A program made the position numbers and the translations under genes. A DNA stretch of 64,000 nt from Escherichia coli (GTDB lineage Bacteria; Pseudomonadota; Gammaproteobacteria; Enterobacterales; Enterobacteriaceae): the NCBI RefSeq assembly GCF_024223415.1, contig NZ_CP100500.1; one strand, 5' to 3'. Below are positions 8,987 through 60,564 of the stretch, in pieces; position 1 is the first letter of the stretch; each line of letters opens with the position of its first letter. The notes beneath the pieces were generated by a model. It had not been told where the DNA came from and searched no databases. It saw only the letters and a program-made list of their open reading frames with translations.

Positions 8987-10909
8987 GCCAGGGCCAACGG
9001 CCTGGAGGAAACCATCCTCAACAGCCGGGACGCCGCAGGCCGCCTGGCAGAAGTCATCTCGCCGGAAGGCAAAACGCAGTATGCGTATGACAAATCCGGC
9101 AGGCTGACGGGTATCTTCAGCCCGGACGGTACATCACAGCGCACCGGCTATGATGAACGCGGGCGGGTGAATGTCACCACTCAGGGCCGACGGGCCATTG
9201 AATACCACTACCCCGATGAACACACCGTCATCCGCTGTATCCTGCCACCGGAAGATGAACGCGACAGACACCCCGATGAATCCCTGCTGAAAACCACATA
9301 CCGCTACAACACCGCCGGAGAACTGACGGAGGTCATTCTGCCGGGGGATGAGACGCTGACGTTCAGCCGTGATGAGGCGGGACGTGAAGTGTTCCGGCAC
9401 AGTAACCGGGGTTTTGCCTGTGAGCAGGGCTGGAATGCAGCCAGCCAGCTTGTCACCCAGCGCGCCGGATTTTTCCCGGAGGAAACCACATGGGGCGGGC
9501 TGCTCCCCTCACTGGTACGGGAGTACCGTTACGACAGCGCGGGCAATGTGTCGGCTGTCACCAGCCGGGAAGATTACGGACGGGAAACACGGCGGGAATA
9601 CCGGCTGGACCGGAACGGCCATGTCACGGCGGTGACAGCCTCAGGCACCGGGCTGGGCTATGGCGAAGGCGATGAGTCCTATGGCTATGACAGCTGCGGC
9701 TACCTGAAGGCGCAGTCTGCGGGCAGGCACCGGATAAGTGAAGAGACTGACCAGTATGCCGGAGGCCACCGGCTGAAACAGGCCGGAAACACGCAGTATG
9801 ACTATGACGCCGCAGGCCGGATGGTCAGCCGGACAAAACACCGTGACGGCTACCGCCCGGAAACAGAGCGGTTCCGGTGGGACAGCCGGGACCAGCTGAC
9901 CGGGTATTGCAGCGCACAGGGTGAGCAGTGGGAATACCGCCACGACGCCAGCGGCAGACGGACGGAAAAACGCTGTGACCGGAAGAAAATCCGTTTTACG
10001 TACCTGTGGGACGGCGACAGTATTGCGGAAATCCGGGAATACCGCGATGATGAACTGTACAGCGTACGGCACCAGGTGTTTAACGGCTTTGAGCTGATAA
10101 GCCAGCAGTTCAGCCGGGTACGGCAGCCGCACCCGTCCGTGGCCCCGCAGTGGGTGACGCGGACGAATCACGCGGTGAGCGACCCGACGGGCCGCCCGCT
10201 GATGCTCTTTAACAGTGAAGGCAAGACGGTCTGGCGGCCGGGGCAGACCAGCCTGTGGGGGCTGGCACTCAGCCTGCCCGCAGACACCGACGACCCGGAC
10301 CCGCGCGGGGAACTGGACGCGGAAGCCGACCCCGGCCTGCTGTATGCAGGACAGTGGCGGGATGGGGAATCCGGGCTGTGCTATAACCGGTTCAGGTACT
10401 ACGAGCCGGAAACCGGAATGTACCTGGTGAGTGATCCACTGGGGTTGCTGGGGGGTGAGCAGACTTACCGGTATGTGCCTAATCCACTGGGTTGGATTGA
10501 CCAGTATGGACTTGCTGGTTGCCCCAGAGCTCTGGCAAGGGCAATGAAACGGGCTAACAGAAACCTAGCTAAGAGTGCCGGATACATGAATCGAGCTTGG
10601 TATAAATTCAAAGGTTCTGCCGCCCATCATATTGTTGCTTGGGATGACCCCCGTGCTTTAGGCGCAAGAAAAATTCTGGAAAAATATGGTATACACATTG
10701 ATTCCGCAGAAAATGGAATATTTTTGAAACATGTAGATCCAAACTCTCTTCAGCCAGGATCTTATCATCGTGTTATTCATACGAACAAATATTATGCTGA
10801 TGTTGAGGCACGACTCGCAGACGCAGCTAAGGCTAATGGGAAACAAGGTGTTCTTGATGAGTTAGATGCTATCAGGGATGACCTGCTTTTTAATAGACTA
10901 ATTTATTAA
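8987..10909 (+). CDS. orphan Rhs C-terminal cassette (core 3' fragment plus alternative toxin domain with AHH nuclease motif)
   Basis: DNA ~8987-10485 is a near-duplicate of main rhs ~6598-8097; after the DPLGL motif the tail differs and contains SAAHHIVAWDD; lacks N-terminus (first ATG at 9167), so may be silent. Confidence 0.7.
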   Translation, partial: ARANGLEETILNSRDAAGRLAEVISPEGKTQYAYDKSGRLTGIFSPDGTSQRTGYDERGRVNVTTQGRRAIEYHYPDEHTVIRCILPPEDERDRHPDESLLKTTYRYNTAGELTEVILPGDETLTFSRDEAGREVFRHSNRGFACEQGWNAASQLVTQRAGFFPEETTWGGLLPSLVREYRYDSAGNVSAVTSREDYGRETRREYRLDRNGHVTAVTASGTGLGYGEGDESYGYDSCGYLKAQSAGRHRISEETDQYAGGHRLKQAGNTQYDYDAAGRMVSRTKHRDGYRPETERFRWDSRDQLTGYCSAQGEQWEYRHDASGRRTEKRCDRKKIRFTYLWDGDSIAEIREYRDDELYSVRHQVFNGFELISQQFSRVRQPHPSVAPQWVTRTNHAVSDPTGRPLMLFNSEGKTVWRPGQTSLWGLALSLPADTDDPDPRGELDAEADPGLLYAGQWRDGESGLCYNRFRYYEPETGMYLVSDPLGLLGGEQTYRYVPNPLGWIDQYGLAGCPRALARAMKRANRNLAKSAGYMNRAWYKFKGSAAHHIVAWDDPRALGARKILEKYGIHIDSAENGIFLKHVDPNSLQPGSYHRVIHTNKYYADVEARLADAAKANGKQGVLDELDAIRDDLLFNRLIY

Positions 10910-10922
10910 TAAGGGCATAGTA

Positions 10923-11456
10923 ATGAATGTTTATTTAATTCGGCATGATGTGGACAACTTCAAGTTTTACTTGCAAGACGAGAGTGACTTTCTTTCAGTT
11001 GCTGCTTTTGATTTTTGTGGAGAGTCTCTATTTAATGGATGGAAACCATACAAAATAGAGCTATTTAAAGGAAAAACTAAAGCTGAGAAATCATTAAACG
11101 GGGATTTTAATTCATCATGTTTTAGTCCAGGATTATTATACGTCGAACATTCTCTCGCAGATGTATTATCTCGTCAGGCAAATGATATTGAGTTATTAAA
11201 AGTAATCACCAGTGATGATCGTGATTTTTATTATGCAAACGTGGTAGGGAAAATACCAGCCTTACATTATAACAACAGACAAGAGCTACAAATTATGAGT
11301 AGAACACAAGAATATAAATTCAATAACTCCATAAATGAAATGTTAATATTTCGTGATAAAACATTACCTTCAAACTATTTTGTTACAGATCGTTTTGTGG
11401 ATATTTTTCAGAATGATTTTCGTGGGGTAATTTTTAAAAAAGTTGGTGAGATATAA
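10923..11456 (+). CDS. putative immunity protein for the orphan Rhs-CT
   Basis: 177 aa, AT-rich, immediately downstream of orphan toxin stop; assigned by position. Confidence 0.5.
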   Translation: MNVYLIRHDVDNFKFYLQDESDFLSVAAFDFCGESLFNGWKPYKIELFKGKTKAEKSLNGDFNSSCFSPGLLYVEHSLADVLSRQANDIELLKVITSDDRDFYYANVVGKIPALHYNNRQELQIMSRTQEYKFNNSINEMLIFRDKTLPSNYFVTDRFVDIFQNDFRGVIFKKVGEI

Positions 11457-11482
11457 CTTAATGCATTGAACATCTAACCCGT

Positions 11483-12015
11483 ACCGCTATGACCGCCACG
11501 GTAACCTGCTGGCGTACACGGACGGTAACGGCGTTGTCTGGACGATGGAATACGGCCCGTTCGATTTGCCGGTCGCGCGAACGGACGGTGAAGGCCACCG
11601 CTGGTGGTACCGCTACGATAAAGACACGCTGCAACTGACAGAAGTCATCAACCCGCAGGGTGAGTCATATCTTTATGTTCTGGATAACTGTGGCCGGGTG
11701 ACGGAAGAGCGTGACTGGGGCGGCGTGGTCTGGCGTTACCGCTATGACGCCGATGGCCTCTGTACCGCCAGGGTCAACGGACTGGAGGAAACCATCCTCT
11801 ACAGCCGGGACGCTGCAGGGCGCCTGGCAGAAGTCATCACGCCGGAAGGGAAAACGCAGTATGCGTATGACAAATCCGGCAGGCTGACGGGTATCTTCAG
11901 CCCGGACGGCATATCACAGCGCACCGGCTATGACGAACGCGGGCGGGTGAATGTCACCACTCAGGGCCGACGGGCAGGGAAAGATCATCAGAAGTTCACT
12001 TTTTGTACTAAATAA
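11483..12015 (+). pseudogene. truncated rhs core fragment
   Basis: ~11483-11975 duplicates main rhs ~6316-6807, then diverges into a short tail before a stop; no toxin domain; abuts the H-repeat element. Confidence 0.7.
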
Positions 12016-48152: not shown

Positions 48153-48617
48153 TTATCTGAGGCATTGCTCTCGAATGTATAGCTGTGCCCCTTCAAGTTG
48201 TTTTTGCATTATTATCAGTCGCTCTCTGAGGGTGAAATAATCCCGTTCAGCGGTGTCTGCCAGTCGGGGGGCGGCTGCATTACCCACGCCGGAGGCGGCG
48301 GTGGCTTCACGCACGGTCTGACAGACTGCTCTGATGCGCAACCGACGACGACCAGCGGCAATATCATCACGAAGAGCATCATTTTCAGCTTTCGCATCAG
48401 CTAATTCCTTCAGGTATTTTGCATCGAGTGCAGTAATATCACGCTGGCGCTGCTGCATGTCAGTAATGGCTGCATTCGCCTGGCTGAGTTTTGTCTTCGC
48501 ATCATCTCTCTGCTCTTTGTAGATGATGGCATTATCGCGGTAATGGGCTATTGCCAGCAACAGCGCACCACTGACCACCAGTAGAATAACAATCACCGCA
48601 TACAGAACCCGTTTCAT
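48153..48617 (-). CDS. i-spanin Rz
   Basis: Start at internal ATG (MKRVLYAVIVILLVV, N-terminal TM); coiled-coil periplasmic domain; track ORF to 48668. Confidence 0.85.
   Translation of the reverse strand: MKRVLYAVIVILLVVSGALLLAIAHYRDNAIIYKEQRDDAKTKLSQANAAITDMQQRQRDITALDAKYLKELADAKAENDALRDDIAAGRRRLRIRAVCQTVREATAASGVGNAAAPRLADTAERDYFTLRERLIIMQKQLEGAQLYIREQCLR
48215..48397 (-). CDS. o-spanin Rz1 (lipoprotein embedded in Rz, +1 frame)
   Basis: 60 aa; lipobox LVVVGC; proline-rich; wholly inside Rz. Confidence 0.85.
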   Translation of the reverse strand: MRKLKMMLFVMILPLVVVGCASEQSVRPCVKPPPPPAWVMQPPPDWQTPLNGIISPSESD

Positions 48618-52774: not shown

Positions 52775-53299
52775 ATGAAGTTATGGCCTGTGTTGACTGG
52801 CATTGCACTCTCTTTCACTCTTATAGCATGTAAGGCCCCGACACCACCTAAAGGTGTGCAGCCGATTACAAATTTTGACGCCAACCGCTACCTCGGAAAA
52901 TGGTATGAAATAGCTCGCCTCGAGAACCGGTTCGAACGTGGTCTGGAACAGGTCAGCGCTACTTATGGAAAACGGAACGACGGAGGGATTCGTGTACTTA
53001 ACCGTGGATACGATCCAACGAAAAATAAATGGAGCGAGAGCGAAGGTAAAGCATACTTTACTGGAGATACTAAAACTGCAGCGTTGAAGGTTTCGTTTTT
53101 TGGCCCCTTCTATGGTGGCTATAATGTAATCAAACTGGATGATGAGTATAAGTATGCTCTTGTCAGTGGTCCGAACAGAGAATACCTATGGATTCTGGCA
53201 AGGACCCCAACTATTCCAGATAAAGTAAAAGCAGACTATGTGCGAACCGCTCAAAAGTTGGGATTCAATGTCAATGAATTATTATGGGTTAAACAATAA
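52775..53299 (+). CDS. bacterial lipocalin (Blc-like outer membrane lipoprotein)
   Basis: 174 aa; lipobox LIAC; strong resemblance to E. coli Blc (NFDANRYLGKWYEIARLENRFERGLE, GKAYFTG, KVSFFGPFYGGYNVI, YLWILARTP); opposite strand to late genes. Confidence 0.85.
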   Translation: MKLWPVLTGIALSFTLIACKAPTPPKGVQPITNFDANRYLGKWYEIARLENRFERGLEQVSATYGKRNDGGIRVLNRGYDPTKNKWSESEGKAYFTGDTKTAALKVSFFGPFYGGYNVIKLDDEYKYALVSGPNREYLWILARTPTIPDKVKADYVRTAQKLGFNVNELLWVKQ

Positions 53300-53327
53300 A
53301 ATCCCTACCCGAAATGATACTTATTAG

Positions 53328-53354
53328 AAAAAAACCAGCCTTTGGGGAGGCTGG
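53328..53354 (-). terminator. putative intrinsic terminator downstream of Q (tR'-like candidate)
   Basis: 6-bp GC stem (ccagcc/ggctgg) with 8-nt loop, followed on the minus strand by a 7-nt U run. Confidence 0.4.
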
Positions 53355-53454
53355 CTAAATCAGAAAACAAGCTGTTATATGATAATAACTACGTTGCGAT
53401 TCCAACATTTAAAATGTTAGACTAATGACAATCAGACAGCAACTTTTCCTTTAA

Positions 53455-53847
53455 TTATTTCGGACAATCAGCATCCATCTCCAATCGGAGATCCAACACC
53501 ATCAGCATGCCCTCCACTACGCCCTCAGCTTTCTGGAGCATCCTGCCAACCCAACAATCAGATCGCCCATGCTTACGTGCAAGCGCCATAAAAGTCATGC
53601 CGCCGACATAATAGTCCACCAATAAATCATGCAAATCGCTGTTGTTTTTTTTCAGGCGAGCCATACATCCACAAATGATCATCGCGTCATCGTCACAACA
53701 TTGCGGGCGAGATTTTACTTTTGAAGGAATTAATCCCTTAAAACCGGCGGCAATGGACGACCAGGTCACATCTTCATGATTATTAGCCGCCCACGCTCCC
53801 CAACGCTCAAGAACCATCTGAATATCACGCATCAACTTTCTCCACAA
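53455..53847 (-). CDS. late-gene antiterminator Q
   Basis: 130 aa; Cys-rich zinc-binding region; position upstream of lysis genes. Confidence 0.75.
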
Positions 53848-53849
53848 AA

Positions 53850-54845
53850 TCAGGCCAGCACACCAATCGCCAGCGCACGATCGATAAAACGAAATATCAG
53901 CTCCAGCTGGGAGCCATACTTCTCTTCGAATGCCACATTATCCGCATGCAGCTCGTCGTGATGCTTTCTGCACAAAGGCAACACAAAGAGGTCATGCGCT
54001 TTTGTCCCCATTCCACCCTGACCGTGGCCTATCAGGTGGTGGGGATCATCAGCAGGTTTTCCACAACATGCGCACGGCTGCGTCTTAACCCATCGCGTGT
54101 ACTTTTCATTAACCCAGCGGCGACGTTTTGGGCGTAACATAAAAGAGTCCGGCGACTCCGGATCCACTTTCAGCGCCAACACCTTTTTCGCTTTATCCTG
54201 GATGATGCTGGTGGCAGGAACCGAAGGCACCAGGTCACTTTCCCGGGTGACAGACGGCACAACAGGCTTCGGTAATCTCAGTGCCTTACGGGCTGCACTT
54301 TCCGGTAAGGCATCCGCCAGATCATTACGAATCAGCCACCAGCACAGTTCCGGCATTGTCACAACGTGACTGTCATCAAAACCGAGATCCCGACGCACAA
54401 CAGACAACACCCAGCGGGCACAGTTATCCGTTGCCATTGATTCCAGCCGTTCCGTGAACTGATCGCGCAGTTGGTTATCGCAGTGCCAGCACAGACGGAT
54501 TGCGCCCGGCGCGTGTCGCATTGTGGTCATGTTCTCGCTGTGCCAGTCGGAATGAGGCCACTGGCAGCCTTTTTCACGAAGTAACCAGCTTTCAAGACAT
54601 TCCACGCCACCAGCACGACGGATCACTGCCTCATTGCGGAACACGGCCCGAACGGCAGGATCATCCGCCAGCGGTTGTGATGCAGCCGGAACGGCACCAC
54701 TGGCAAAAGATGAATAACGTTCCGGCTCAGGCTCCAGCAGGACACGCCCCTGCATAAACAGGGGCATCAGCTCTGAACCTGGCCTGAACAATACGATCCC
54801 CATACGCGGGGCAATTTCAGGGGTCAGTAGTGCTCTCACGGTCAC
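53850..54845 (-). CDS. DUF968-like nin-region protein with C-terminal zinc/HNH-like motifs
   Basis: 331 aa; C-terminal [14 protein letters not shown]...CRKHHDELH. Confidence 0.6.
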
Positions 54846-54846
54846 C

Positions 54847-55656
54847 TCAATGAACGGTATCGAGCAGCTTTAACAGCTCAGGGAATCGGGATTCGAAGAA
54901 ATGCGGCTGCGTCTCGCGCGGATTTGCGGGACTGGTGATGTTCTTGCCGAACATGCAGCCTTTCGCTGTCAGCGACCAGAATTTTTTGATGTTGTTAATC
55001 GCGGTACGGCTGTATCGTTCGCGTTGTTCAACGATCCCCAGCTTCGCCATCTGGTGATATGCCTGATTAGCCGTCAGGCGGATACCATACTGCTTCAGCA
55101 GTGCACTCAGCGACAGCGTCGGGCGGCTTGAGCCATCAGGCGCGTCAGCAGGTGCATCAATGGCATAGCGCGGTGCCAGATTCGGTAAGCCAACAGCCTC
55201 CTGGAGTTTCTGACAGGCCCCAAGCACAGATGAGTTAGACAGATTTAACTCCCGGCGCATAAAGTCCAGCAGAATCACGCCAGCCTGCATCTTGTCAGCA
55301 GCCTGTCCGGATAACTTTTCCGGCGCGCTGGTTACCATATCGAAAGTACGGATCACCTTCAGATGGAATGACGGGCTGATCCACATTGCATAGGCATACA
55401 CCAGTTCCTTACAGACATACGTTCCCCGTTCATTTCCCCCATGAATCACGCTCACCGGGTCAACACCCAAATTCTGGGTGTTGGTTAATTCATGAACAAG
55501 CTCAACAGTTTGTTGGCTGGAAAGAAACTTTCCTGGCTCCTTGGTTCTGGCATTTGCACCAGATGCTACTGCTGCGCGATGCAGATCGTTCAGGCTGTAA
55601 CGCCCATAAGCATCACGACGAACTTCAATACCATCAATGACCATCAGATTATTCAT
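54847..55656 (-). CDS. KilA-N domain protein
   Basis: 269 aa; N-terminal KilA-N-like region (IDGIEVRRDAYGRYSLNDLHRA). Confidence 0.6.
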   Translation of the reverse strand: MNNLMVIDGIEVRRDAYGRYSLNDLHRAAVASGANARTKEPGKFLSSQQTVELVHELTNTQNLGVDPVSVIHGGNERGTYVCKELVYAYAMWISPSFHLKVIRTFDMVTSAPEKLSGQAADKMQAGVILLDFMRRELNLSNSSVLGACQKLQEAVGLPNLAPRYAIDAPADAPDGSSRPTLSLSALLKQYGIRLTANQAYHQMAKLGIVEQRERYSRTAINNIKKFWSLTAKGCMFGKNITSPANPRETQPHFFESRFPELLKLLDTVH

Positions 55657-55675
55657 ACTTCGTTTCTCCTCTTAA

Positions 55676-56065
55676 TCAGGCAGCTGCACCCGCCGTTTTC
55701 TCGTACTTACTGATAGTGATCTCGACCTTCCCTTCCGGGATAACCGGTCCCCACTCCACCAGCATTCTTTTCACCTGACTGTCGTCTTCCCACACCCCCG
55801 CGTGGGTCAGGGCGTCAAACAGCGCCTTGTTATAGTTGTCCAGATCGCGGATCCTGTTATCCGGAGGAAACAACACGATCTCCACTGAAGCAGGTGCCGA
55901 CGTTGGTTTCGGCAGACGACGTAACTGCTCAACTATTGCTGCGCACGCCGCGCTCTGGAATTTTCGCCCCGCCGCGCTTATCAGGCTCTTACCTGCAAAC
56001 GCCCCTTTGTTAGGGTGTCGCCAGTAAGTGTTCACGCTGGGCGGGAAAGGCAGGATAAGCTTCAT
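55676..56065 (-). CDS. rusA: Holliday junction resolvase RusA
   Basis: 129 aa; RusA signature (PPSVNTYWRH...RDLDNYNKALFDALTHAGVWEDDSQV). Confidence 0.9.
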   Translation of the reverse strand: MKLILPFPPSVNTYWRHPNKGAFAGKSLISAAGRKFQSAACAAIVEQLRRLPKPTSAPASVEIVLFPPDNRIRDLDNYNKALFDALTHAGVWEDDSQVKRMLVEWGPVIPEGKVEITISKYEKTAGAAA

Positions 56066-56388
56066 ACTTTCAGGCCCCTCTCATGTAACCAGTGAGTTGC
56101 ACGCAGCCTGGCGTTTTCCTCACCGGCAAGCAGTGCGCGGATAATCCCGGCTGCCTCGCTGTCGTCGTCCTTCACTGTGGTATGAAGCGTGATACCCCGG
56201 GCCACGCCACGCTTTATCGTGATGACGCCTTTTTTCTCCAGTGCGCGAAGATGCTCCACCGCTGCATTCACCGAACGGTATCCCAGCATGGCTGCCACCT
56301 CCTGATTGGTTGGCGGGAAACCACGTTCTTTCTGATAAGAAATCAGCATATCCAGCACCTGCTGCTGGCATTGAGTTAACGTCGTCAT
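56062..56388 (-). CDS. LexA-type winged-helix DNA-binding protein
   Basis: 108 aa; LexA N-terminal-like HTH (LTQCQQQVLDMLISYQKERGFPPTNQEVAAMLGYRSVNAA); ATGA overlaps with neighbours. Confidence 0.6.
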   Translation of the reverse strand: MTTLTQCQQQVLDMLISYQKERGFPPTNQEVAAMLGYRSVNAAVEHLRALEKKGVITIKRGVARGITLHTTVKDDDSEAAGIIRALLAGEENARLRATHWLHERGLKV

Positions 56389-57038
56389 GCCGCCATCTCC
56401 CTGACCAGTTTTTCTGCCTGCTGGCGAACCTGCGCCAGAAAGGCCTCACCACATGCCTCAAGTTCATCGCGCCCGATGTAGCTGATTGCCGGTCCCTTCC
56501 AGGTCTTGTCGAAAACAGCAATAGCACCAGCGAAGAAAGCGCCTGTCGGCACCTGCTTCTCATCCTTCGGGATAAACCAGGCAGGCAGTTCAAAACCAAT
56601 ACGCCCGCGAATAAAAGCAATATGATCTACATCTTCCGGCCACCACACTTCGCTGGTGGCAGCTTTGATCAGGAAAACATAGCGCCCGCCTTTATCACGC
56701 ATGGCACTGGCATGCTTCATGATGTAACGCATGCCGGTGATGTATTGCCCCTCATGCTGACTGGCGCGGCTGTATGGGGGATTACCAAAGGCAGCACCTT
56801 TAAGCTCCGCAAGGCGTTCTGACCAGTCATGCGCCAGCGCGTTGTCTTCCGCCGTGTAATACGCAGCACATTTGGCGTTATCACCGTCAGTGAACAGATC
56901 CAGAACAAACGGGCCAAACAGGGTGTTAATTCCCCAGAAAATGTTGTCCGGCGTGCGCCACTGATCGCCCACTTCCTTCAGTTCATGGGCTGGTTTGTTC
57001 CGCAGTTCCACCAGCGCCTGGCAATATTTATTACTCAT
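56385..57038 (-). CDS. phage DNA N6-adenine methyltransferase (Dam-like, orphan)
   Basis: Start at internal ATG overlapping upstream stop; NPPY catalytic motif (AAFGNPPYS); no adjacent endonuclease. Confidence 0.75.
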   Translation of the reverse strand: MSNKYCQALVELRNKPAHELKEVGDQWRTPDNIFWGINTLFGPFVLDLFTDGDNAKCAAYYTAEDNALAHDWSERLAELKGAAFGNPPYSRASQHEGQYITGMRYIMKHASAMRDKGGRYVFLIKAATSEVWWPEDVDHIAFIRGRIGFELPAWFIPKDEKQVPTGAFFAGAIAVFDKTWKGPAISYIGRDELEACGEAFLAQVRQQAEKLVREMAA

Positions 57039-57532
57039 TAAGCCCCCACGTAATTCCCTGAGAGATACCACTCTTCACCTGATGCAGCCCGCTTACTGCT
57101 TTTCCGTAAACACCGTTCACGACGCGCCAGAAAATTGTTTCGTTCTGGCAGGGAGTGGCTTTCACGGAATGCCGCCATCCACACCGTTGCAGCACGACGG
57201 TATAAGCCCCTGGACTCCAGTTCTTCCGCCTGGCGGGTCAGGCACAAAATCACCCGCGGGTCGTTAGTGCCGACATAGAAATTGCGCACAGGTCTGGTTT
57301 CACGAACTGGTTGTGGTTCCGGATCCTGCGCTCTCTCAGTCAGGCGCGGGAAATGTCTGTGTGTATCTCCTTCACAACGGTGAGCCACACGCCCACTCTG
57401 ACGTAACTTGCTTGCTGACTGCAGAACGCGCTGCCGTGAGTAACCTGCAAAAGCATCCGCAATGTCTCCGGAAGTACAGCCCGGATGGGCTTCAATGAAT
57501 TTCTGAACGTCATTCAAAAGACTCATGCTCAC
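57038..57532 (-). CDS. hypothetical protein
   Basis: 164 aa; translationally coupled between replication gene and methyltransferase. Confidence 0.5.
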   Translation of the reverse strand: MSMSLLNDVQKFIEAHPGCTSGDIADAFAGYSRQRVLQSASKLRQSGRVAHRCEGDTHRHFPRLTERAQDPEPQPVRETRPVRNFYVGTNDPRVILCLTRQAEELESRGLYRRAATVWMAAFRESHSLPERNNFLARRERCLRKSSKRAASGEEWYLSGNYVGA

Positions 57533-58470
57533 CCCCTGAATCCTGCCGGGATCTGGCTGTAGTCCACATTGTCGTAACTGGCTTTGAAGTACGGGTCTTC
57601 GCGTTTTTCTGTGTACGTGCTGACGGACGGCGATAAGCGCAGGGAAAGCTCATCCCATTTTTCCCGCAGCTTCGACGGGCTGAGCACGTTACGGCACCAG
57701 AACGGATCGCGGCTGACGCGGCTGTAAATCTCGCAGATTTGTTTGTGAGTACGACCATCCTGCACACACATCAGGCGAATTTCGTTTGCCCAGGCTGTCC
57801 AGTTCGGTTCTTTGGGACGAACCACCTCGCCGTCACATTCGGCAGCCTGCTCGTACAGGGCGATGATTTTTTTCCAGAGCCACTGTGCGCAGGTCAAATC
57901 ATCCTGCGTCCCCCACTGGCGTTTTTTAGGGCTGAATACAACCGCATCAGGATGGCGAGTTAAAAAATCCTGTTCAGCCGTCTGCGTGTCCGGTTGCGAA
58001 GAGTCCGGACGAGAAGGTTTTTTATCTGACGGATCATGTTTTGATTTTACTGACGGATCCCCGCCAGATTCTGACGGGTGAAAACCCGCTTTTTTGCCAG
58101 ATTTCGACGCATCAAATTTTGACGGGTCAGATTTTGATGCGTCAGATTTTGACGGGTCAGAATCTGACAGTTGAGAAAATGCCGCTGCCTGAAGCTTCGC
58201 AACGTTAAGCTGATAAACATTCGACGCATTGCGGTTACCCTGGCGACGCGCCTTACGCGTTAACCAGCCTTCTGCTTCCAGCCGTGCGATAGCCGTTCTG
58301 ACGGTACTCATCCCCGCGCCAATCTGGCGGGCAATGGTTTCAATCGATGGCCAGCACACACCTTCGTCATTACTGAAATCAGCCAGGCGGGCCATAATTG
58401 CCACGCTGGATAATTTCATGCCTGACGCTGCGCAACCATCCCATACATAGCCGGTTAATTTAGTGCTCAT
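57529..58470 (-). CDS. phage replication initiator (HTH N-terminal domain, O-like)
   Basis: 313 aa; N-terminal replication-protein HTH; central low-complexity SKSD repeat coinciding with DNA iterons. Confidence 0.75.
   Translation of the reverse strand: MSTKLTGYVWDGCAASGMKLSSVAIMARLADFSNDEGVCWPSIETIARQIGAGMSTVRTAIARLEAEGWLTRKARRQGNRNASNVYQLNVAKLQAAAFSQLSDSDPSKSDASKSDPSKFDASKSGKKAGFHPSESGGDPSVKSKHDPSDKKPSRPDSSQPDTQTAEQDFLTRHPDAVVFSPKKRQWGTQDDLTCAQWLWKKIIALYEQAAECDGEVVRPKEPNWTAWANEIRLMCVQDGRTHKQICEIYSRVSRDPFWCRNVLSPSKLREKWDELSLRLSPSVSTYTEKREDPYFKASYDNVDYSQIPAGFRG
58020..58170 (-). repeat. iteron-like direct repeats (candidate replication origin) inside the replication gene
   Basis: Recurring (C/T)TGACGG(A/G)TC with ~15-bp period, e.g. 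tcagattttgacgggtcagattttgatgcgtcagattttgacgggtcag. Confidence 0.5.
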
Positions 58471-58479
58471 GACCGACCT

Positions 58480-58818
58480 CTATTTCCCTGAATTTACGAC
58501 GAAACTGTTCGAGCGGACTGAAGCACTCATGCTCATAGCCTTCGCGGAGGTAGATAACCCGTTGTGTTTCCGGTTCCCAACGAATGACTCTGACGGGCAC
58601 TCCGTAGTGATCTTTGAACCAGCGGTTAACTTGTCGCAAAGGACTGTCTCCTTCTGCCGGTTGAAATCCCCCACAGCCCACTCTGCAAAGCTGTGGGTTA
58701 CAATTTCCCTGTCACCTGGTACATTCACTGCATAGCAATATTCCACCTTCGCTTTTCCACCCGGTACAGGAAGCGCAATCAGTTGCGAGCGACGGTAGTG
58801 TGTTGTTAAACTGTTCAT
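58480..58818 (-). CDS. hypothetical protein (frame uncertain)
   Basis: 112-aa ORF with ATGA start/stop overlap to upstream gene, ending 10 nt before replication gene start; an alternative 73-aa ORF (58460..58681) overlaps in another frame. Confidence 0.35.
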
Positions 58819-59486
58819 GCGTTAGTTTCTCCACAACCAGAAGCAATCGACGCCACGACGCCCGGAGCTGCACACTCGCGGGCGTCATTACTTTCTGAAA
58901 TGCAAAAGATTTTGTAGACCAGTGCTGCATGCTCCTGCAGCTTCGAAATTGAGAGATACAGCTCGTCGTTAATTGCTGTCTTCTCATGCGGTTCCACTAC
59001 ACCGTCTTCGATTGCTGAACGAATCTGTTTTGAATAACTGCCGATCTGTTCAATGACTTCCAGCAGACGCTGGTTAATATCGGCGTTGTCCACATCCTCG
59101 ACGTCAGGAAGAGACACAAAGACGCCATTTGCAGACTGCGCCACAGCGTCAGCAATGAAGTGAGTTCCACCAGCACGTTGCAAAATCATTGCCCATCCCA
59201 GCGGGAAAATCTGATCGCCATCGGCACGAAGGCGGTTAAATAATGCGTTCTCTGTTACATCCAGCCAGTCAGCTGCTTCAGCGTAACCACCCGGCAACTT
59301 TGCGATAGTTTTTCTGACAGCTTTCACGTACCACTCAGGCTGTTTTTCTACTTTCCAGTGATGCTTACCCACGGTTAGCCTCATCGTTCTGTGGTTTCTG
59401 TTAATCGATTTATCCATTAGATTTTTCATAAAGCTCAGGTTTAAATGGCAACCGTCCGCAAGTTCTATATGCAGCTTCTGCTGCAC
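58815..59486 (-). CDS. putative CII-like early regulatory protein
   Basis: ORF directly downstream of cro-like gene; true start probably an internal Met at ~59384-59429 because the longest ORF overlaps cro. Confidence 0.45.
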
Positions 59487-59610
59487 GTCCTTTTGGAATT
59501 AACTGGCCCGGACGGTTTCGCCACTGATAAACGGCTTCAGTTGTTATGCCGAAAAAAGCAGCAACTTTCTCAATACTGCCGAAGTAGCTTTCGATATCGT
59601 CAGTTGTCAT
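59410..59610 (-). CDS. Cro-like HTH regulator
   Basis: 66 aa; divergent from repressor gene; HTH-like segment (VAAFFGITTEAVYQWRNR). Confidence 0.75.
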   Translation of the reverse strand: MTTDDIESYFGSIEKVAAFFGITTEAVYQWRNRPGQLIPKGRAAEAAYRTCGRLPFKPELYEKSNG

Positions 59611-59707
59611 ACGCCCTCCAAACTAAGTTTTGTTAGATGCTAATTACAAATCTATCTTTGGTCAATAAAAACTAAGATTACTTAGCAATTAAAGAAATGG
59701 TGCTCCT
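59611..59707. promoter_or_regulatory. divergent cro/cI control region with two operator-like 14-bp palindromes
   Basis: CTAAGttttGTTAG at 59623-59636 and perfect CTAAGattaCTTAG at 59672-59685 between divergent starts. Confidence 0.55.
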
Positions 59708-60334
59708 ATGGAAACGGTTGGTCAGCGTATAAAAGCTCTGAGAAGAGTTACCAGAACGTCCCAGAAAGAATTGGGTAAATTTTGTGGAGTAAGCGACGTT
59801 GCTGTGGGGTACTGGGAGAAAGACATCAATACCCCTGGTGGGGAGGCACTTTCGAAATTAGCGAAGTTCTTCAATACGTCAATAGATTACATTCTTTATG
59901 GTGCTGAGTTTGAAGGCAAACTCGTCACAAACATGCGCAGAGTTCCTGTAATATCGTGGGTTCAGGCTGGGCAGTTTACTGAGTGCAGGGCAGCAGAAGT
60001 GTTTAGTGAAGTGGACAAGTGGGTAGATACATCATTAAAGGTTGGTGATAACTCATTTGCATTAGAGGTTAAAGGTGACTCCATGACTAACCCTAATGGC
60101 CTCCCAACAATACCAGAAGGCGCAACAGTGATTGTAGATCCAGATGCAGAACCTCGTCATGGAAAAATAGTCATCGCTCGACTTGATGGAACAAACGAAG
60201 CTACAGTAAAAAAATTAGTCATCGATGGCCCTCAAAAGTTTTTAGTGCCATTAAATCCTCGGTATCCCAACATCCCTATCAATGGTAATTGCCTTATCAT
60301 TGGTGTAGTCAAAGGAGTTCAATACGAACTCTAA
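59708..60334 (+). CDS. CI-type repressor (HTH + S24 LexA-like peptidase domain)
   Basis: 208 aa; N-terminal HTH (SQKELGKFCGVSDVAVGYWE); C-terminal catalytic Ser/Lys context (VKGDSMTNP ... KKLV). Confidence 0.9.
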   Translation: METVGQRIKALRRVTRTSQKELGKFCGVSDVAVGYWEKDINTPGGEALSKLAKFFNTSIDYILYGAEFEGKLVTNMRRVPVISWVQAGQFTECRAAEVFSEVDKWVDTSLKVGDNSFALEVKGDSMTNPNGLPTIPEGATVIVDPDAEPRHGKIVIARLDGTNEATVKKLVIDGPQKFLVPLNPRYPNIPINGNCLIIGVVKGVQYEL

Positions 60335-60413
60335 GGCCTCTCTTCTCTAACTAAGGCACCGAACTAAGAAAAGTTTGGTGTTTTCTCTTGCCATAATAAC
60401 TAAGTTAAGTTAG
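60331..60413. promoter_or_regulatory. cluster of CTAAG operator-like motifs just downstream of cI
   Basis: CTAAG at 60331, 60351, 60364 and palindrome CTAAGttaaGTTAG at 60400-60413, same half-site as the cro/cI region. Confidence 0.4.
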
Positions 60414-60564
60414 ATTTTATATCAAAGATAACGAACAGGCAGGACGCCCACGAAGTAGCCGCCTGGGGCATATAAAGTCCAGGATGATTCGTTAGCAACA
60501 AAAAAGCGCCCTACAGGACGCTTAGCTCTTTAACAATCTGGGTATCATCCAACCAATGCAAGAT

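Follow-up and report, generated by a model that had tools for sequence, protein, structure and literature searches.

The Dam proteins of phages T1 and HP1 are known as GATC enzymes from the older literature, and in established Dam biology the host responds to hemimethylated DNA with MutH nicking and SeqA binding. A third phage enzyme, Phi93DAM of a Lactococcus phage, methylates GATC; SMRT sequencing of the phage showed this, and so did DpnI/DpnII digests once the gene had been cloned (PMC4190342). All three match the Pfam family PF05869, with mutual identities of 31 to 37%. The MT-A70-type 'Dam' of an Stx phage methylates 16S rRNA and depends on a partner protein to do so (PMC10810198). The S. 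aureus prophage enzyme PamA renders GATC sites DpnI-sensitive in expressing strains and changes virulence traits of the host (PMC11042277). PamA is, like the protein described below, a small prophage enzyme with an NPPY motif; its host has no Dam, so that an effect on the host methylome is visible there, unlike in E. coli.

We analysed a 64,000-nucleotide stretch of the E. coli contig NZ_CP100500.1 (assembly GCF_024223415.1), which is called the window here. Positions 1 to about 24,600 are E. coli chromosome (the nfrA, nfrB, rhs and vgrG region), and the remainder is a lambdoid prophage. The gene under study is an intact, ATG-initiated open reading frame of 654 nt encoding 217 residues (Table 1). 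The list of open reading frames also offered an alternative GTG start at 57071. This longer version is unlikely, because the RefSeq protein of E. coli EC96 (WP_000066917.1, 'phage N-6-adenine-methyltransferase') corresponds exactly to the 654-nt version at equivalent coordinates, and the N-terminus MSNKYCQ is kept in the homologues of ST64B and phiNP. Antisense and alternative-frame open reading frames across the gene gave no Pfam match, and an Rfam scan of 53000 to 60500 gave no match.

Table 1. Features of the methyltransferase gene and its surroundings, in window coordinates.
Feature	Position	Strand	Basis or identifiers
Methyltransferase CDS, stop included	56385..57038	-	ORF list, PF05869, TIGR01712, same RefSeq gene model, dN/dS
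Codons of N-terminal D25-x-W27-x-T29-P30, followed by L-D at residues 46-47	56949..56966	-	(Near-)invariant columns
Catalytic motif IV codons N86-P87-P88-Y89 (AAT CCC CCA TAC)	56772..56783	-	Sequence read and alignments
TAATG, stop TAA of the yfdN-like gene sharing its last A with the methyltransferase ATG	57036..57040	-	Sequence read
ATGA, methyltransferase TGA overlapping the ATG of the LexA-domain gene	56385..56388	-	Sequence read
YfdN (PerC-family), upstream neighbour, left cassette boundary	57038..57532	-	PF06069, RefSeq yfdN
108-aa protein with a LexA DNA-binding domain only, downstream neighbour, right cassette boundary	56062..56388	-	PF01726, E 3.4e-19
O-like replication gene	57529..58470	-	
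Q antiterminator	53455..53847	-	
pR-like promoter TTGACC-17-TAGCAT, upstream of cro	59637..59665	-	Consensus scan
First strong terminator-like hairpin downstream of Q	53333..53356	-	Consensus scan
Fusion relatives (C5 methylase or PAPS-reductase), 57-74% identity			P0126, P0128, P0133, P0129, P0143

The protein was compared with Pfam at E values up to 0.01, and PF05869, 'DNA N-6-adenine-methyltransferase (Dam)', was the sole family reported (E 1.1e-45, 155.8 bits against a cut-off of 28.1). It also scored 256.5 bits, against a cut-off of 97.05, with the NCBIfam equivalog model TIGR01712, 'phage N-6-adenine-methyltransferase', and the type II methyltransferase model of PADLOC (MTase_II) matched it end to end. 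The four residues of the NPPY motif were invariant across 11 sequences that included T1 Dam and HP1 Dam; in an alignment of 30 sequences P88 was invariant, and N86, P87 and Y89 were at least 90% conserved. With T1 Dam and HP1 Dam the protein also shared D-x-W-x-TP, L-D, the serine of NPPYS and several later positions, and the motif columns were at least 90% conserved in the 30 sequences. These scores, the three motifs within the first 90 residues, the small single domain and the orphan location in a prophage place the protein in PF05869/TIGR01712. From their sequence, D-x-W-x-TP and L-D may correspond to motifs X and I in the amino-methyltransferases of the gamma class; the 'ETPPEVV...LEPA' of M.TaqI served for comparison.

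The best match among the PHROG families bears a different name. It is phrog_33262, 'phosphoadenosine phosphosulfate reductase', of which the protein covers positions 283 to 492 of 495 only. This profile is a fusion family, and the matched portion is its methyltransferase half. It thus accounts for the misleading name of the gene in several RefSeq phage records (NC_009514, NC_003444, NC_021857, NC_019716 and NC_004313), where the reductase label is a carried-over annotation error. Natural fusions were found among the relatives: some, 67 to 74% identical, carry a C5 cytosine DNA methylase domain in addition, and others, 57 to 71% identical, a PAPS-reductase-type domain, which occurs on either side of the methyltransferase. 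Many relatives of 285 to 327 residues occur in Cronobacter, Atlantibacter, Enterobacter, Salmonella and Citrobacter (P0049, P0052, P0059, P0077, P0084 and P0118; L008, 4001 to 4894; L009, 4004 to 4885). At least two unrelated types of C-terminal extension occur among them, without any Pfam match; the window protein has neither.

The sequence-only reading had called the enzyme 'Dam-like'. The description fits the name and the probable target, but the family is that of HP1 and T1 (PF05869) and not that of E. coli Dam and T4 Dam. We take PF02086 to be the D12-class Pfam family of the classical enzymes (E. coli Dam, T4 Dam and DpnM), and assignment to them was rejected, as no Pfam family besides PF05869 was matched at E values up to 0.01. 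Classical alpha-class Dam enzymes carry first the SAM motifs, then an inserted recognition domain, and DPPY in the C-terminal half, whereas the window protein has a different order and no such domain; in structural alignments it was about 7 to 12% identical to E. coli Dam, T4 Dam and DpnM. The prophage 'Dam homolog' of EC958, M.EcoMIV, carries a PF02086 domain and was set aside, as was M.EcoGIX ('SAY'), which is plasmid-borne and specific for single-stranded DNA. The non-specific Hia5/Hin1523 family has been grouped with Dam, DpnM and T4 Dam (PMC3299994), whereas the window protein matches PF05869 only, and assignment to that family was rejected. M.EcoPA8orf6770P and M.EcoGV are likewise annotated as phage 'Dam' in Stx phages, but they are DPPW enzymes of the MT-A70 type. 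Equivalence with M.EcoGV was rejected, since M.EcoGV closely resembles the DPPW enzyme, of the MT-A70 type, that phage PA8 encodes (PMC10810198); the window protein has NPPY, matches PF05869 only and is encoded between O and Q.

A sequence search for a solved structure in PF05869 found no member, and an AlphaFold model was built on 30 homologues (pLDDT 94.8, pTM 0.90). The model showed one alpha/beta domain followed by a 27-residue helix, without a separate target-recognition domain. The best Foldseek match in the PDB was the cap adenosine methyltransferase PCIF1 (TM 0.45 to 0.49), and the top structural neighbours also included Erm, KsgA and METTL5. The linear order of the motifs and these structural neighbours, together with the M.TaqI motifs, suggest a pared-down gamma-class enzyme.

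The window protein was then compared with the characterized members of PF05869. Identity was 32% with Phi93DAM (E 5e-17) and 24% with T1 Dam; with HP1 Dam it was 33% in an alignment of 72 residues. All four proteins are small, single-domain, orphan and phage-borne, and share PF05869, D-x-W-x-TP, L-D and NPPYS. Compared with the other three, the window protein is extended by about 10 residues behind NPPYSR, its hairpin region is longer and it has the 27-residue C-terminal helix in addition; overall identity is 23 to 33%. DNA is likely to be the substrate by analogy, because the validated PF05869 members act on DNA and relatives are fused to C5 DNA methylases. Our best guess for the target is GATC, which we regard as probable because GATC specificity survived comparable divergence elsewhere in PF05869. 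Our literature search found no member of the enterobacterial subfamily with a directly measured target. GATC occurs at 137 sites in the prophage, with an observed/expected ratio of 0.69 against 0.79 in the host flank, a difference that shows no avoidance or enrichment bearing on specificity.

The low identity to the validated GATC enzymes, the insertions beside the catalytic loop and the C-terminal helix peculiar to the subfamily and the lack of a separate target-recognition domain are also what would be expected of a DNA N6-adenine methyltransferase with a non-GATC or relaxed specificity. Such an enzyme would give broader protection and a new methylation pattern on induction, and non-specific enzymes of the M.EcoGI/M.EcoGII types do occur in E. 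coli prophages (PMC6602927, PMC4659465). We consider this unlikely. The three validated members, for all their divergence from one another, recognize GATC, and the window protein is at a comparable distance from them (PMC4190342); its score is also well above the cut-off of TIGR01712, an equivalog model. If the enterobacterial subfamily should not be a plain GATC enzyme, it would offer a minimal model, of about 200 residues and with no recognition domain, for the reading of a target, and its carrier phages would gain a distinct protective methylation mark on induction.

A substrate other than DNA was considered in the same light. PCIF1, Erm, KsgA and METTL5 are among the structural neighbours, the codon overlaps tie the gene to small DNA- or RNA-binding neighbours, and there is a precedent in the MT-A70-type methyltransferase of an Stx phage, which acts with the partner PNB-2 (PMC10810198). 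The enzyme might then act mainly on RNA, perhaps with YfdN or the LexA-domain protein as its adjacent partner. This is very unlikely, as the precedent belongs to another family (MT-A70, DPPW) and another place in the phage genome (PMC10810198), while the validated PF05869 members act on DNA and close relatives are fused to C5 DNA methylases. The structural likeness is confined to the shared methyltransferase core, with TM below 0.5, and both neighbours persist unchanged in prophages without the methyltransferase. A wider version, in which the insertions and the C-terminal helix would give the subfamily either a substrate other than DNA or a DNA target that is changed or relaxed, and the gene would be a cassette conferring a protective mark, appears to us improbable. 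A GATC enzyme acting on DNA is the reading we prefer.

We next considered the gene's surroundings. On the minus strand, the order is the pR-like promoter, cro, a CII-like gene, a DUF4222 gene, the O-like gene with origin-type repeats, yfdN and the methyltransferase gene, followed by the LexA-domain gene, rusA, a KilA-N gene, the DUF968 gene, Q and a hairpin. The position between the O-like replication gene and Q agrees, by analogy, with the earlier placement of the gene in a 'nin region'. The C-terminal part of YfdN matches PerC (PF06069, E 4.3e-8), the family of the virulence-gene activator of EPEC, and there is a weak match to the ANR family. The 108-residue protein downstream of the methyltransferase has no S24 cleavage/dimerisation domain. 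Its recognition helix SVNAAVEHL resembles the SPNAAEEHL of E. coli LexA, and no perfect SOS box (CTGT-N8-ACAG), as a possible target of this protein, was present in the window.

Among the six neighbours scanned with Pfam and PADLOC, no restriction enzyme was matched, and the early-left genes that were scanned showed neither a nuclease nor a methyltransferase domain. The stretch from Q to the lysis genes matches that of a related prophage in E. coli GDSC2BY4G (L002), where lipocalin, YbgA and HTH genes are annotated and no methyltransferase. The prophage parts examined thus hold no restriction endonuclease or second methyltransferase. In another related prophage (L006), a 350-residue 'DNA-methyltransferase' is encoded at 10647 to 11699, in the slot between Q and the lysis genes; it is absent from the window. 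The nucleases near the gene are RusA, two genes downstream, and the DUF968 protein, four genes downstream (53850 to 54845, minus strand; PF06147, E 1.3e-80), which also gave a borderline HNHc_6 match of 26.6 bits, exactly the cut-off. The sequence-only reading had described an orphan N6-adenine methyltransferase with an NPPY motif and no neighbouring endonuclease; the open reading frame, the family scores and the missing restriction enzyme match support this, with 'endonuclease' taken in the sense of a restriction enzyme.

RusA and the DUF968/HNH-like protein would be the candidates for a restriction half if the methyltransferase were the modification half of a restriction-modification pair. 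RusA belongs to a Holliday-junction resolvase family, and PADLOC found no restriction component. The comparison with GDSC2BY4G, the best whole-region match found (85% coverage of a 25-kb query), is more telling. Its operon is 96 to 99% identical to that of the window and keeps RusA, KilA-N and DUF968, but the methyltransferase is absent, and the same TAATG joins yfdN directly to the LexA-domain gene (L002, 21622 to 21822). As RusA and DUF968 stay where the methyltransferase is missing, there is no restriction partner among them. A 201-nt probe over this empty junction was intact in 761 genomes (GDSC2BY4G and 760 others), which a toxic restriction partner would forbid in these at least 761 genomes. 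The homologues of ST64B and phiNP have other neighbours as well: in ST64B the gene lies between a YfdN-like gene and rusA, and in phiNP between a replication gene and a second, 575-residue methylase. A restriction-modification pair is therefore extremely improbable, and membership in a type II system was rejected, with no cognate endonuclease adjoining and the methyltransferase absent from otherwise similar prophages.

The same comparison shows the gene to be an optional cassette of precisely 654 nt with ATGA at either end, preceded each time by a TCAGGGA-type sequence. Among the phages, SfII has the gene and SfIV is without it.

The gene is widely distributed. Of 5426 complete E. coli genomes, 2119 carry it with at least 95% nucleotide identity, and a match covering at least 80% of the gene is present in 1724 genomes. 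The protein of phage phiSTEC1575-Stx2k is 100% identical to the window protein, and those of SfV, SfII, cdtI, mEp460 and many Stx2a/Stx2c phages are 98 to 99% identical. The lambdoid and Shigella phage copies as a group (SfV orf41 'dam', SfII dam, cdtI dam, mEp460 and the Stx2c/Stx2k phages; WP_000066917.1), at 98 to 100% amino acid identity, have the same flanks as the window gene, with yfdN upstream and the LexA-domain gene downstream. Position 137 is V in the window protein and A in most copies, and there is otherwise no difference of substance. As to M.EcoVT2Dam as a possible PF05869 member, VT2-Sa and 933W are not named in the best 60 matches listed, which take in all 42 records at 95% identity or more. 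The 'PhiR' phages of ECOR13 are among the carriers, and a literature search on them in connection with the gene found nothing relevant. The gene is thus real, intact and selected, and it is also catalogued, extremely common and already known; the result matters little beyond correct annotation.

K-12 carries a shortened copy. Its YfdM (L010, 6113 to 6388) is identical to residues 1 to 89 of the window protein and ends just past NPPY, with more than half of the fold missing; by this identity, the window gene is the intact form of yfdM. A preprint describes YfdM as a 'Dam methylase' responsible for the propagation of phage SW1 (10.1101/413146). Such a role is hard to reconcile with the truncated K-12 protein. 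As K-12 yfdM is a fragment, phenotypes put down to its 'methylase activity' need another explanation.

The truncated K-12 copy, together with the many database entries for relatives that are fragments or frameshift fusions, could suggest that the window gene too is a relic without activity, a mere passenger of the prophage. The window copy has its full length and every conserved motif, and its product is identical to that of the inducible phage phiSTEC1575-Stx2k. Its dN/dS was 0.10 against a 98%-identical E. coli copy and 0.08 to 0.11 against ST64B and phiNP, with dS saturated for both of the latter. The gene is under purifying selection, with dN/dS of about 0.1, and a relic is hardly credible.

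Considering the operon layout, we asked how the gene would be expressed. The pR-like promoter lies upstream of the confirmed cro gene, and the confirmed repressor gene, encoding an S24 peptidase, diverges from it at 59708 to 60334. Promoters and terminators were called by consensus scans only, and these revealed no promoter-like site and no terminator-like hairpin on the minus strand between pR and the methyltransferase gene; weaker minus-strand hairpins lie inside the DUF968 gene (about 53854 to 54421), ahead of the strong one downstream of Q. The pR-like promoter is thus the probable source of transcription through the gene. Because the repressor controls this operon and no promoter-like site lies within it, a lysogen probably keeps the gene silent; judging from the layout, expression probably follows induction. 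Transcriptional silence in lysogens is common among prophage methyltransferases (PMC4659465).

We consider it likely that the gene encodes a GATC-specific orphan phage N6-adenine DNA methyltransferase, made during lytic growth, which keeps the phage DNA methylated. The rightward early promoter, under control of the repressor, would drive its transcription together with that of the replication and nin-type genes. The coupling to its neighbours that had been proposed from the sequence finds its basis in the start and stop codon overlaps, which are real, and translation of the gene would be linked to that of both neighbours through them. The enzyme would be made after induction or infection and not in the stable lysogen, and it would maintain full methylation of the fast-replicating phage DNA once replication outruns host Dam. 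Full methylation would shield the DNA of the progeny where a restriction enzyme attacks GATC that lacks the methyl group, and would avoid the host responses to hemimethylated DNA, namely MutH nicking and SeqA binding. An anti-restriction role is a reasonable inference from Dam biology. Considering the redundancy with host Dam, any selective benefit is putative.

The expected expression and target also bear on the comparison of methylomes between a lysogen and a cured strain, which had been put forward as a check with the absence of a new motif as its refutation. In a dam+ host this comparison cannot test the function of the gene. Finding no new motif in the lysogen would refute nothing, because the gene is probably silent there and GATC is already fully methylated by host Dam.

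Several minor observations were made in the same region. Origin-type repeats lie in the O-like gene at 58021 to 58172, with about 5 copies of the 15-nt CAGATTTTGACGGGT and copies of CTGACGGATC upstream; the repeats correspond to a repeated DPSKSD peptide. Each copy of CTGACGGATC contains GATC (58032 and 58056), and methylation at these repeats could affect origin use. Just downstream of Q, a lipocalin gene (Blc-like) lies on the plus strand at 52775 to 53299, and in the GDSC2BY4G relative genes of the YbgA family and of an HTH protein stand beside it. The stretch between Q and the lysis genes is the slot of the toxin genes in Stx phages. In the GDSC2BY4G prophage an IS2 element is inserted next to the lysis genes (L002, 12537 to 13870), and the corresponding point of the window, at about 48536 to 48539, is free of it.
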